Source: Escherichia coli (lineage in GTDB: Bacteria; Pseudomonadota; Gammaproteobacteria; Enterobacterales; Enterobacteriaceae). From it: a DNA stretch of 64,000 nt. The stretch lies in the NCBI RefSeq assembly GCF_041886205.1, contig NZ_CP169029.1; one strand, 5' to 3'. The notes beneath the pieces were generated by a model. The model did no database searches. It was not told where the DNA came from and worked only from the letters and a program-made list of their open reading frames with translations. Of this stretch, positions 54,749 to 55,039 are shown in pieces. Position 1 is the first letter of the stretch. Every line of letters starts with the position of its first letter. Both the position numbers and the translations under genes were made by a program.

Positions 54749-54761
54749 TGCTTTTACTCTA

Positions 54762-54955
54762 AATAATTCAAGTTGCAGGAAGGCGGCAAGCGAGTGACAA
54801 ATTCGTCAGGAACGAATTTGCCCAGCCGCAGGCTGGCCTTCGGTGAGAGACATGGATGTCTCTCATTAATCCCCAGGAGCTTACATAAGTAAGTGACTGG
54901 GGTTAGCGAACGCAGACGCAGCACATGCAATTTAAAGTATGACGAGTATAACTGG
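54762..54955. repeat. ERIC (IRU) element with ~65-bp internal insertion
   Basis: 54887..54908 aagtaagtgactggggttagcg matches the ERIC2 primer 21/22; 54865..54886 is the complement of ERIC1R 20/22; left arm ttcaagttgcaggaaggcggcaagcgagtgacaaattc; extra palindromic segment 54804..54867 interrupts the element. Confidence 0.7.
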
Positions 54956-55039
54956 CGCTACGGCTGATGGCGCCAATTATTAATTTGCCCCACGTCATGG
55001 CGATGGCGTCTGTAAGCAATTATTCATAACGCAGACAAC

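Follow-up and report, generated by a model that had tools for sequence, protein, structure and literature searches.

ERIC elements affect mRNA decay at the 3' end. 'Insertions within ERIC sequences' of ~70 bp, placed at fixed internal sites and keeping a well-folded RNA, were reportedly described by Sharp 1997 and Cromie et al. 1997. The tRNA-linked repeats (TLR) are said to go back to Egan & Landy 1978 and Rudd 1999.

Terminal inverted repeats (TIRs) and a TA target-site duplication are described for ERIC (PMC2229807, Table 1; PMC3184786), and a passage of PMC10969869 cites Wilson & Sharp 2006 for 14 extra ERICs outside K-12. RrA, RrB and RrF are the sRNAs of the rrnA, rrnB and rrnD trailers and are members of the tRNA-linked repeats (Stenum 2021, PMC8144298), which have been described since 1978 and were stated in 2021 to have no known function. 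RrB binds CsrA in a GGA-dependent manner with a KD of about 100 nM, and also binds Hfq; the CsrA and Hfq assays were made for RrB alone (PMC8144298). The consensus for a high-affinity Csr/Rsm site is an ANGGAX hexaloop (PMC4005645). In our literature search, which did not extend to the key ERIC papers of 1997–2006, we found no statement of what the ERIC insert sequence is and no link to TLR/RrB, and nothing relevant on CsrA with ERIC or MITE, or on panC–yadD transcripts.

The locus studied here is the spacer between the convergent genes panC and rpnC in a 64,000-nt stretch of Escherichia coli DNA (contig NZ_CP169029.1), hereafter called the window. With the panC stop at 54746–54748 and the end of the rpnC stop codon at 55040, the spacer covers 54749 to 55039, a length of 291 nt. 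The features of the locus are as follows.

53897..54748, + strand: panC coding sequence, pantoate–beta-alanine ligase (ORF list and RefSeq annotation of the 100%-identical record NZ_CP037903.1 and others)
54753..54754, no strand: left copy of the TA target-site duplication (alignment of filled and empty sites)
54755..54948, + strand: composite ERIC of 194 bp with TIRs TACTC…GAGTA (allele alignment and primer-site matches)
54798..54868, + strand: inner module, 'type A', assigned here to a TLR-core / RrB-like four-hairpin family (indel against the AST85 ERIC-only allele)
54798..54820, + strand: P1, predicted 9-bp hairpin CAAAUUCGU/ACGAAUUUG with loop CAGGA at 54807–54811 (inverted repeat, fold)
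54822..54836, + strand: P2, predicted 6-bp hairpin CCAGCC-GCA-GGCUGG (fold)
54837..54843, + strand: P3, predicted small hairpin, here CC-UUC-GG and weak (alignment, pair counts)
54844..54865, + strand: P4, predicted 9-bp stem UGAGAGACA/UGUCUCUCA, extendable to 11 bp at 54842–54867 (inverted repeat, fold)
54871..54902, + strand: central ERIC hairpin CCCCAGGAGCUUAC-AUAA-GUAAGUGACUGGGG, the ERIC-PCR primer core (inverted repeat, pattern search, fold)
54949..54950, no strand: right copy of the TA target-site duplication (alignment of filled and empty sites)
54953..54985, + strand: terminator-like hairpin UGGCGCUACGGCUGAUGGCGCCA followed by AUUAUUAAUU (terminator scan)
55040..55936, - strand: rpnC (yadD), convergent with panC (ORF list and RefSeq annotation)

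What distinguishes this spacer from the short one of K-12 is a canonical ERIC miniature transposable element, which entered a TA located 3' of the panC stop and ahead of the terminator-like hairpin native to the locus. The composite of 194 bp consists of 123 bp of ERIC proper (127 bp with both TAs) and a 71-bp module. The empty K-12 site reads ACT-TA-ACTGG and the filled site of O157:H7 and AST85 reads ACT-TA-[TACTC…GAGTA]-TA-ACTGG; comparison of the two shows both the TIRs and the TA duplication. The left TA has degenerated to TT in the window but is intact in O157:H7 and AST85. Without the 71-nt module, the conserved core is found inside an imperfect palindrome of ~127 bp. The 35-nt ERIC core AATCCCCAGGAGCTTACATAAGTAAGTGACTGGGG matches exactly at 54868–54902, once in the 64-kb window against 0 expected by chance. 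Using primer sequences taken from PMC3696847, we found the ERIC2 primer at 54887–54908 with 1 mismatch and the complement of ERIC1R at 54865–54886 with 2 mismatches; the ERIC1R site is split by the inner segment, and the GTG of the site lies at 54794–54796. The element is thus like the ERIC/IRU MITEs in its palindrome, ERIC-PCR core, TIRs, TA duplication and strain polymorphism, and also in its intergenic placement in a presumably transcribed 3' region. It is multi-copy as well, an ERIC-containing query being found at a median of 6 places per genome. The composite repeat folds with −79.4 kcal/mol (z = −7.4 against shuffles).

The terminator-like hairpin lies 3' of the ERIC and is kept in all five aligned alleles, including the empty one of K-12, and we presume that the composite repeat is located in the panC 3' UTR. 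Promoter-like matches at the locus were found by the promoter scan on the opposite strand only.

The panC–rpnC locus occurs in three states: empty, ERIC only (AST85), and ERIC with the 71-nt segment. Among 5,426 complete E. coli genomes, an ERIC occupies this site in ~427, and in 408 it includes the inner segment; the O157:H7/O55:H7 lineage is among the carriers, and strain LHM10-1 is another with the segment-bearing form. In the K-12-like strain 5A (panC at 147944–148795) the spacer is 73 nt, with a clean empty site TAATACT|TAACTGG, and the alignment shows the whole ERIC to be missing from the K-12-like and AREA_504 alleles. The panC–rpnC ERIC is therefore a lineage-level polymorphism, carried by a minority of E. 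coli lineages and not by K-12. The original prediction had described a 291-nt spacer holding an ERIC/IRU element with near-exact primer matches at 54865..54908, polymorphic in its presence and absent from a K-12 spacer of about 70 nt, and in all of this it was right; the highly structured transcript that it expected agrees with the predicted fold; its suggestion of a strain-specific insertion is contradicted by the ~427 carriers.

Alleles of the same three states are present between dxs and yajO (451, 373 and 248 nt; flanks 97–98% identical), where ERIC-only is by far the commonest. The ERIC backbone has variants that are common to the copies of one locus: panC has GGCGGC where ybfA and gyrA have GGCGAC, and dxs has AAACGAGTGAAGCCCC. 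Both at panC–rpnC and at dxs–yajO, the module is present in some and missing from other orthologous ERICs that share the backbone variants of their locus, which shows that it behaves as a unit gained or lost inside a resident ERIC.

Alignment with AST85 places the module at 54798–54868 or, owing to a 1-nt ambiguity at the junction, at 54797–54867. It stands in the ERIC left arm directly after GCGAGTGA and before ATCCCC, and its right flank is the ERIC sequence AATCCCCAGGAGC. An extra segment interrupting the ERIC arm had been expected from the sequence; it is real, nested and structured, measuring 71 nt where ~65 nt at 54804–54867 had been proposed. The palindrome gagagacat/atgtctctc is perfect as claimed, its coordinates having been off by one; its DNA arms, TGAGAGACAT/ATGTCTCTCA at 54844–54853 and 54856–54865, are 100% complementary and form P4. 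A second palindrome had been noted as well and reads CCAGCC-GCA-GGCTGG at 54822–54836. The DNA arms of P1 are CAAATTCGT/ACGAATTTG at 54798–54806 and 54812–54820.

Folded alone, the module has an MFE of −32.5 kcal/mol (z −4.6). When the composite is folded at full length, the MFE structure pairs the left arm of ERIC with the P2/P3 region, so the module's own fold may not be the sole one. Two further points were set aside. A likeness of module A to the 5' end of 5S rRNA (GAAUUUGCCCAGCCGCAG) is seen in subtype A alone and was treated as coincidence, and a pseudoknot between the GGA loops and the AAUCC tail was dropped on steric reasoning, the linker being only 2–3 nt.

A lack of other genomic copies of the segment had been named as a refutation of the original prediction, and here BLAST was misleading. 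By BLAST the 71-nt segment was found in 615 genomes at a median of one place, and looked near single-copy and restricted to E. coli. A structure-aware search (pattern scan and covariance model) placed it in a large family, which includes copies in the rrnA/B/D trailers of K-12 and in our scan covers at least six orders of Gammaproteobacteria. The covariance model R1 scores the window copy at 79.3 bits (E 2e-16, span 54796–54869), the sole significant match in the 64-kb window, and the copy at E. coli rrnB at 77.6 bits. Rfam gave weak matches only, to RsmV and AaHKsRNA22; no Rfam family covers the module, as searched with the spacer at E ≤ 10, with 11 foreign loci at the gathering threshold, and with rrnB and the type-B loci at E ≤ 1.

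In an alignment of 30 diverse copies (MAFFT), 92.6% of the cells are paired, where shuffles reach 76% and slid registers 24–42%, and 16 of the 26 pairs show compensatory changes; RNAalifold predicted the same four hairpins. When 120 distinct copies were aligned to the model, 93.2% of the cells were paired, 25 of the 26 pairs were compensatory and all four helices were supported. P1 is the part of the family most conserved in sequence, pairing in 99–100% of cells with U-A↔C-G covariation at two positions. The stem of P2 is variable in sequence and has compensatory changes in 5 of the 5 modelled pairs; P3 reads CCC-GNA-GGG in most members; and in P4 all nine pairs covary while the closing C-G is nearly invariant. 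Since this covariation is kept across orders of Gammaproteobacteria and in different host repeats, the fold appears to be under purifying selection somewhere. As for the folding strand, folding energies are equal on both strands, and the wobble asymmetry is weak overall (G·U 45 vs A·C 37), favouring the + strand in P1 and P3 only; we have dropped these counts as proof of strand.

Module A occupies the same ERIC position at three E. coli loci, and also in Citrobacter, Pectobacterium and an enterobacterial MAG. A second subtype, B, lies in the ERIC right arm after GAGCGA, in the same orientation as A, and ERICs with both A and B are common in Pectobacterium and the enterobacterial MAG. At rrnB of E. 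coli the module lies between terminators T1 and T2 and forms the sRNA RrB; identity to rrB is 73% for B and 60% for A. The tyrT-linked RtT repeats contain a diverged form; R1 scores each of the four annotated copies at 12–15 bits, in the orientation of the tRNA. For 12 of the 128 copies, a tRNA-Ser or tRNA-Tyr gene lies 77–405 nt upstream on the same strand. The module is further found behind tRNA-Ser and inside unrelated small repeats in Rheinheimera, Methylobacter, Sedimenticola, Rudaea and others. The host repeats in Sedimenticola, Methylobacter and Rheinheimera are non-coding and 170–317 bp long, and we therefore rejected an IS end or autonomous element as the host of the module.

The sites at which the module sits are alike. 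The left flank ends in GA in 98 of the 128 copies and in CA in 24; in the left arm of ERIC the junction is GA|AUCC(C), split tRNA T-loops have GGUUCGA|AUCC, and a copy of the 5S 3' end has GAGUAGGA|AACUGCC. This likeness suggests either that the module enters at a particular sequence and in one orientation, or that it recombines at a motif resembling the T-loop.

Compared with RrA, RrB and RrF, the window copy has the same predicted four-hairpin core, with a nearly identical P1 and with GGA in the loops of P1 and P4; the core shared with rrB corresponds to stem-loops 2–4 of Stenum et al., whose loops contain GGA. The flanks also agree, with GA directly to the left and A(A)UC/AAC directly to the right. 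The three sRNAs reside in stable-RNA operons with dual terminators, whereas the window copy lies in a MITE and in a presumed mRNA 3' UTR. No tRNA or rRNA gene adjoins the window copy, which also lacks the 18–19-nt copy of a tRNA or rRNA 3' end; its right flank shares only ATCC(C) with the 3' halves of tRNA T-loops and stems. By covariance model and sequence comparison, the segment in the window is identified as the core module shared by the tRNA-linked repeats and the sRNAs RrA, RrB and RrF. In the RtT RNA (RF00391, 178-bp repeats), the tRNA T-arm is split in the T-loop, as AAGGTTCGA[…]ATCCTTCCCCCACCACCA, by ~70 nt with recognisable P2, P3 and P4; unlike the window copy, it has a different first hairpin and no GGA loops. 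RF00391 gave no match on window positions 54600–55200 even at E ≤ 10.

The window copy resembles the sponges CsrB, CsrC and RsmX-Z and the two-site binders McaS and GadY in having GGA hairpin loops, CAGGAUG-like as in the CsrB repeats, and its two sites are spaced, as in the two-site binders, so that a CsrA dimer could bridge them. It differs in having two loops against 9–22 in CsrC and CsrB, and it is not a free-standing gene with a dedicated promoter. Membership of the Rsm clan (CL00106) is not indicated: RsmV, the best weak Rfam match, scores 16.3 bits against a gathering score of 100 (E 0.022) and aligns P4, and the copy falls far short of the gathering scores of all Rfam models. With the insertions within ERIC the segment agrees, as far as these are described, in size (71 nt), in its fixed position after GCGAGTGA and in the strong composite fold. 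What appears to be new here, although an earlier mention is possible, is the proposed identity of the ERIC insert as a TLR-core / RrB-like module that has two subtypes, one per ERIC arm, and that by sequence and model also occurs outside ERIC and outside enterobacteria.

We consider it fairly probable that, as a whole, the spacer element is an ERIC carrying a module of the TLR/RrB family that binds CsrA in the panC 3' UTR. The composite lies in the panC orientation upstream of the terminator-like hairpin, and is therefore expected to form part of the panC transcript as its 3' UTR. Within it, ERIC stem and module would fold into a multi-branched structure presenting two GGA loops, CAGGA in P1 and AUGGAU in P4, ~45 nt apart. 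With its terminal A·U pair open, the latter (54852–54857) would be a hexaloop of the ANGGAX type for CsrA/RsmE. A CsrA dimer could then bind the panC 3' UTR, which would serve locally as a minor CsrA site or decoy, in addition to the known effect of ERIC on 3'-end mRNA decay.

By analogy, CsrA binding is the most likely molecular activity of the window module, because RrB, which is built alike, uses motifs of this kind to bind CsrA, and because an ANGGAX hexaloop on a stem is a high-affinity Csr/Rsm site. GGA is found in or at the P4 loop in 103 of the 120 distinct copies, in a search pattern that did not require it. It should be noted that most P1 loops in the family read CGGGA, not the ANGGA form, and that the window copy has only two GGA loops. 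The phenotypes of RrA/B/F, deletions included, are modest and partly paradoxical, and CsrB outcompetes RrB about tenfold (PMC8144298). CsrA binding is not a family-wide property, as GGA loops are absent from the RtT relatives. Between tandem gene pairs the structured strand of the module is sense 23 times and antisense 20 times, and in E. coli the copy at ybfA runs antisense to the genes on either side, so most copies cannot work as sense-strand mRNA elements. On this lack of bias we rejected a cis-acting sense-strand mRNA element as the general role of the family; the conserved structure may instead serve the element's own propagation.

It is possible, though on balance rather unlikely, that the module is a passive passenger, structured DNA belonging to one ERIC subfamily, selectively neutral and with no role at panC, its hairpins and GGA being kept by descent from TLR/RrB or needed for spread. 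For this speak the lack of a gene-orientation bias, the polymorphic locus at which most E. coli lack the element, the copies decayed by deletion (GN25 and JNE120442) and the modest phenotypes of the RrA/B/F deletions (PMC8144298). Such neutrality sits poorly with covariation that is kept across gammaproteobacterial orders and host repeats, and with the retention of the P4 GGA loop; besides, a neutral panC copy would be compatible with CsrA-binding activity, and the two readings differ in fitness effect only. We hold it unlikely that the module is a tiny non-autonomous element acting at the DNA level, its hairpins recognized as ssDNA or RNA by an enzyme in trans, e.g. a HUH/Y1-type transposase or a recombinase, with entry in one orientation at GA|A(U)CC and with the GGA serving enzyme recognition and not CsrA. 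The precise presence and absence in orthologous ERICs at two loci speak for this, together with the constant orientation and position in ERIC, the similar left flanks, the entry into several unrelated host repeats and T-loop-like sites, and again the lack of orientation bias relative to genes; but gene conversion between ERIC copies could give the same polymorphism. Moreover, no associated protein gene was found in the small non-coding host repeats, P1 is conserved and P4 free in sequence, which would not be expected of the matched end hairpins of IS200/IS605-type elements (PATE or REP-like), there is no target duplication, the right junction of type B is imprecise, and the rrn copy is by experiment a CsrA-binding RNA.

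The change at panC could be a gain of the module or its precise loss. In a further reading the ERICs with A or with A and B (about 200–275 bp) would be original, the 127-bp ERIC a deletion derivative and the ERIC-only alleles at panC and dxs products of precise loss. Most of the ERIC copies recovered in Pectobacterium and the enterobacterial MAG do carry A, many of them also B, and a paper title, 'Reductive divergence of ERIC sequences among Gammaproteobacteria genomes' (Zo 2011, cited in PMC10969869), hints in the same direction. We nevertheless find this very unlikely. A and B have the same orientation in the two arms and are not mirrored, so they are not part of the ERIC palindrome symmetry; rrn trailers, tRNA trailers and further repeats carry the module independently of ERIC; ERIC-only is by far the commonest allele at dxs–yajO; and no flanking direct repeats would favour a precise deletion, the A junction having a 1-nt ambiguity only. 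Returning to the ERIC with a CsrA-binding module, we speculate, while considering it quite unlikely in this full form, that the module is a portable CsrA-binding RNA cassette which arose or thrives in TLR trailers and was repeatedly nested into MITEs at T-loop-like GA|AUCC sites. MITE transposition would then scatter Csr/Rsm sites and would bring the panBC mRNA (pantothenate synthesis) of the O157:H7/O55:H7 lineage and some other E. coli within reach of CsrA. Enterobacteria would provide ERIC as the host, whereas Rheinheimera, Methylobacter, Sedimenticola and others would provide small palindromic repeats of other kinds.

Taken alone, the panC–rpnC locus is an ordinary ERIC insertion polymorphism; its importance lies in the identity of the inner segment. 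This segment connects the ~70-bp 'insertions within ERIC' of 1997, the tRNA-linked repeats and the sRNA between T1 and T2 of rrnB, which is present in countless cloning vectors. In ERIC-PCR, elements with the module will differ in behaviour from those without it, since the ERIC1R primer site is interrupted. The alleles that occur naturally at panC–rpnC and dxs–yajO (empty, ERIC, and ERIC with module) are ready isogenic-style material for separating the effects of ERIC and module on mRNA. If all copies form one family, as covariance model and covariation indicate, it would reach well beyond the Enterobacterales rrn trailers where it has been traced, it would merit an Rfam entry, none of the present ones covering it, and carriage by MITEs would be a route for CsrA-type hairpins into mRNAs.

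The 291-nt spacer between panC and rpnC (54749–55039) is largely occupied by an ERIC element that itself carries an extra segment, in a gene neighbourhood that also includes panD (ORF list). The features of the locus are as follows.

53088–53885, panB
53897–54748, plus strand, panC
54755–54948, ERIC element, with ends TACTC…GAGTA and TA on either side
54798–54868, extra segment, a clean 71-nt indel between GCGAGTGA and ATCCCC in the allele alignment
54953–54975, terminator-like hairpin just downstream of the ERIC, followed by AUUAUUAAUU
55040–55936, minus strand, rpnC/yadD

The original prediction placed an ERIC here, and this was borne out. 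Using the primer sequences from PMC3696847, ERIC2 matches at 54887–54908 with one mismatch and the complement of ERIC1R at 54865–54886 with two, and the window has one occurrence of the 35-nt ERIC core, against a chance expectation of none. The internal palindromes described earlier are real, and the K-12 spacer length given there, about 70 nt, was right: that of a K-12-like genome is 73 nt. Terminal inverted repeats with a TA duplication are the ERIC signature (PMC2229807, PMC3184786), which this element fits; its left flanking TA is mutated to TT in the window. Across the 891 nt tested, the window is 100% identical to strain LHM10-1.

Alignment of five alleles revealed three states of the locus: empty in the K-12-like strains 5A and AREA_504 (…TAATACT-TA-ACTGGCG…), ERIC-only in AST85 (220-nt spacer), and ERIC with the segment in the window and O157:H7 F7386. 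The terminator-like hairpin lies downstream of the ERIC and is also found in the empty alleles, indicating that the ERIC landed between the panC stop and the hairpin; it would belong to the panC 3' UTR. An ERIC is present at this locus in approximately 427 of 5,426 complete genomes and the panC–ERIC–segment junction in 408, leaving roughly 19 with an ERIC that lacks the segment.

Other variation was seen in the same interval. The ERIC left arm of O157:H7 F7386 (L002) contains a 7-bp tandem duplication, CAAGTTG, corresponding to window position ~54770, so that the spacer there is 298 nt. In the interval from the terminator hairpin to the rpnC stop, indels of 11 and 12 nt distinguish the window (54990–55039) from the K-12 allele (L001), and the final rpnC codons of the two differ. 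The rpnC (yadD) gene shows high strain-to-strain variability (window 55040–55936, comparison loci L005 and L006). Strains C7, Ecol_276 and ST131-type genomes have a longer panC–rpnC interval, a diverged rpnC and an extra small ORF annotated as 'hypothetical' or 'RpnC/YadD family protein'. A 58-codon ORF on the minus strand (54754–54930) spans the ERIC and the segment; 'ERIC ORFs' of this type have been noted (PMC2229807), and we saw no sign here that this one is a gene.

BLAST, the search that the original prediction proposed for the insert, places it in 615 genomes, with about one copy per genome, and at three or more different loci. This segment, type A, is located at panC–rpnC, upstream of ybfA and upstream of gyrA, at every one of these loci within an ERIC and in identical position and orientation. 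A related segment, type B, is also present in the gyrA ERIC, on the right arm after GGGGTGAGCGA and in the same orientation. There are 649 genomes with type B, which lies in ERICs at gyrA, yehK–yehL and dxs–yajO. The three dxs–yajO alleles are the empty site (248 nt), the ERIC alone (373 nt), which is by far the most frequent, and the ERIC with type B (451 nt), with flank identity of 97–98%. At both panC–rpnC and dxs–yajO, locus-specific variants of the ERIC backbone are kept with or without the module, and thus gain or loss of the module took place in an ERIC that was already there. Within ERICs the module is a discrete unit of gain and loss.

Types A and B have a common layout, and their stem differences are compensatory. 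A scan with the first hairpin common to both, CAAATYCGYNNGGARCGRATTTG, in one genome per species (genome_contigs collection) gave at least 120 stretches. Among the matches listed, the Enterobacterales are Citrobacter, Enterobacter, E. albertii, Pectobacterium, Pseudescherichia and an ERIC-rich MAG; the further taxa are Rheinheimera, Alishewanella, Arsukibacterium, Methylobacter, Methylomonas, Methylotuvimicrobium, Methylovulum, Kangiella, Billgrantia, Rudaea, Sedimenticola, Methylophaga and one betaproteobacterial MAG. One fold is common to all copies among these matches.

P1, 9 bp, loop nnGGA
P2, 4–6 bp, sequence variable
P3, CCC-GNA-GGG
P4, 7–10 bp of free sequence, cap C-A(N)GGAU-G

Covariation was first tested on 30 diverse copies aligned with MAFFT, blind to structure. 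Paired cells made up 92.6%, against 76.4% after shuffling (0 of 500 shuffles as high) and 24–42% in slid registers; double changes occurred at 16 of 26 pairs, and RNAalifold independently predicted the same hairpins. A covariance model of the module, R1, finds a single copy in the window (54796–54869, 79.3 bits) and, among the matches listed, 128 copies in the fetched loci, including second modules within one ERIC in Pectobacterium and the ERIC-rich MAG. In the R1-fitted alignment, which leans towards the structure because it is fitted to it, 93.2% of cells are paired and 25 of 26 pairs covary among the matches listed. Of 120 distinct copies among those matches, 103 have GGA in or at the P4 loop, a feature that the search pattern did not demand. 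Selection acts on the fold of the module across the family.

Individual copies deviate. In strain GN25 (L008, 1500–1534), two 9-bp direct repeats (CAGTCGCAG), located in P2 and in the ERIC right arm, bracket a loss of about 90 bp from the ybfA-locus ERIC with type A, apparently a decay of the composite element by slippage or recombination. The dxs–yajO type B of JNE120442 (L012, ~1040) has lost 12 nt internally, and with them P3 and the 5' half of P4. When the panC–rpnC composite is folded at full length (MFE), GGAAGGCGGC of the ERIC left arm (54778–54790) pairs with GCUGGCCUUC of the module (54831–54841) and replaces P2/P3; such a predicted pairing could make the fold context-dependent.

The flanks of one Enterobacter copy, recognisable as an rRNA operon trailer, pointed to rrnB of E. 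coli. A full module is located there between terminators T1 and T2 (R1 77.6 bits), within an incomplete copy of the 3' end of 5S, GAGTAGGA[module]AACTGCCAGGCATCAAAT; 4,296 of 5,426 genomes carry the rrnB-trailer module, with a median of three sites per genome. The sequence in rrnA, rrnB and rrnD is known as rrA, rrB and rrF (Stenum et al. 2021, PMC8144298). In brief, its T1 read-through transcript is processed to an sRNA of ~115 nt that binds Hfq, and CsrA with a KD of ~100 nM; mutating GGA motifs in loops or single strands abolishes CsrA binding, and the phenotypes are modest only (PMC8144298). The same authors place these sequences among the tRNA-linked repeats (TLRs), 22 in K-12 and with 'no known function', whose last 18–19 nt repeat the adjacent tRNA or rRNA 3' end exactly, and traced their conservation only to Enterobacterales rrn trailers (PMC8144298). 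Identity to rrB is 73% for type B and 60% for type A. Rfam 15 contained no family for the panC–rpnC, rrnB, type B or foreign-locus modules scanned. The panC–rpnC composite is an ERIC with a nested TLR-core/RrB-family module.

Among the matches listed, 38 of the 128 copies are in ERICs and 78 in other contexts which, where checked, proved to be short non-coding repeats (170–317 bp). Twelve modules among these matches lie 77–405 nt downstream of tRNA-Ser or tRNA-Tyr genes on the same strand, inside split T-arm copies, in Rudaea, Alishewanella, Rheinheimera and a tubeworm symbiont. The E. coli tyrT RtT repeats share this anatomy, a tRNA-Tyr T-arm split in the T-loop (AAGGTTCGA[~70 nt]ATCCTTCCCCCACCACCA), and match R1 weakly in the tRNA's orientation (12–15 bits), but lack GGA loops. 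Entry sites are alike and also resemble a split T-loop: GAGUGA/AUCCCC, GAGCGA/AC…, GGUUCGA/AUCC and GAGUAGGA/AACUGCC, with the slash at the point of entry. P1 is preceded by the dinucleotide GA 98 times and by CA 24 times in the 128 copies among the matches listed.

In Rudaea sp. (L090, 4741–6502), tandem arrays of three and two ~165-bp units follow two tRNA-Ser genes, each unit comprising a terminator-like hairpin and a split T-arm copy with a module whose P3 is extended; they are a non-enterobacterial counterpart of the 178-bp tyrT repeats of E. coli. Type B with the ERIC right arm (L009 1104–1224, L010 992–1089) gave weak, sub-threshold matches to Rfam RF02902, Aggregatibacter sRNA 22 (27 and 24 bits; gathering score 39.8), and Pasteurellaceae may have a related element. 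Strain UM146 also has, between yehK and yehL (L010 1510–1583), an OrzO-P antitoxin RNA (84.5 bits), unrelated to the finding described here. Plasmid records of E. coli gave 30 rrnB-trailer module matches, likely due to the rrnB T1–T2 terminator cassette of cloning vectors; vectors with this cassette have been warned to express a CsrA/Hfq-binding RNA (Stenum et al., PMC8144298).

What appears to be new is the identification of the insert as a TLR/RrB module with two subtypes, one per ERIC arm, its nesting in other small repeats and its spread well beyond enterobacteria. Insertions of ~70 bp in ERICs were reportedly noted in 1997, and the phenomenon has been known since then. ERIC insertion polymorphism is of an ordinary kind, already catalogued by Wilson & Sharp 2006 as far as relayed in PMC10969869. 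Neither the reviews consulted nor Stenum et al. state that the insert is such a module, nested in other small repeats and spread beyond enterobacteria; priority is uncertain.

Lying in the panC orientation and upstream of the terminator-like hairpin, the window module should be transcribed within the panC 3' UTR. It displays CAGGA on P1 and AUGGAU on P4, the latter fitting the ANGGAX hexaloop on a stem, defined as the high-affinity Csr/Rsm site by Duss et al. (PMC4005645). By analogy with RrB, CsrA binding would be its likeliest activity. The ERIC as such probably affects 3'-end decay, in view of an RNase E effect that has been reported for ERICs of Yersinia (De Gregorio 2005, as relayed by PMC2229807, PMC3184786 and PMC10969869).

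A general mRNA-sense role is another matter. Among the matches listed, modules in tandem gene pairs are sense in 23 cases and antisense in 20, both neighbours of the ybfA copy lie antisense to it, and the wobble-pair asymmetry between strands is weak. These observations speak against such a role, and the conserved structure may thus serve the spread of the module as much as any host function.
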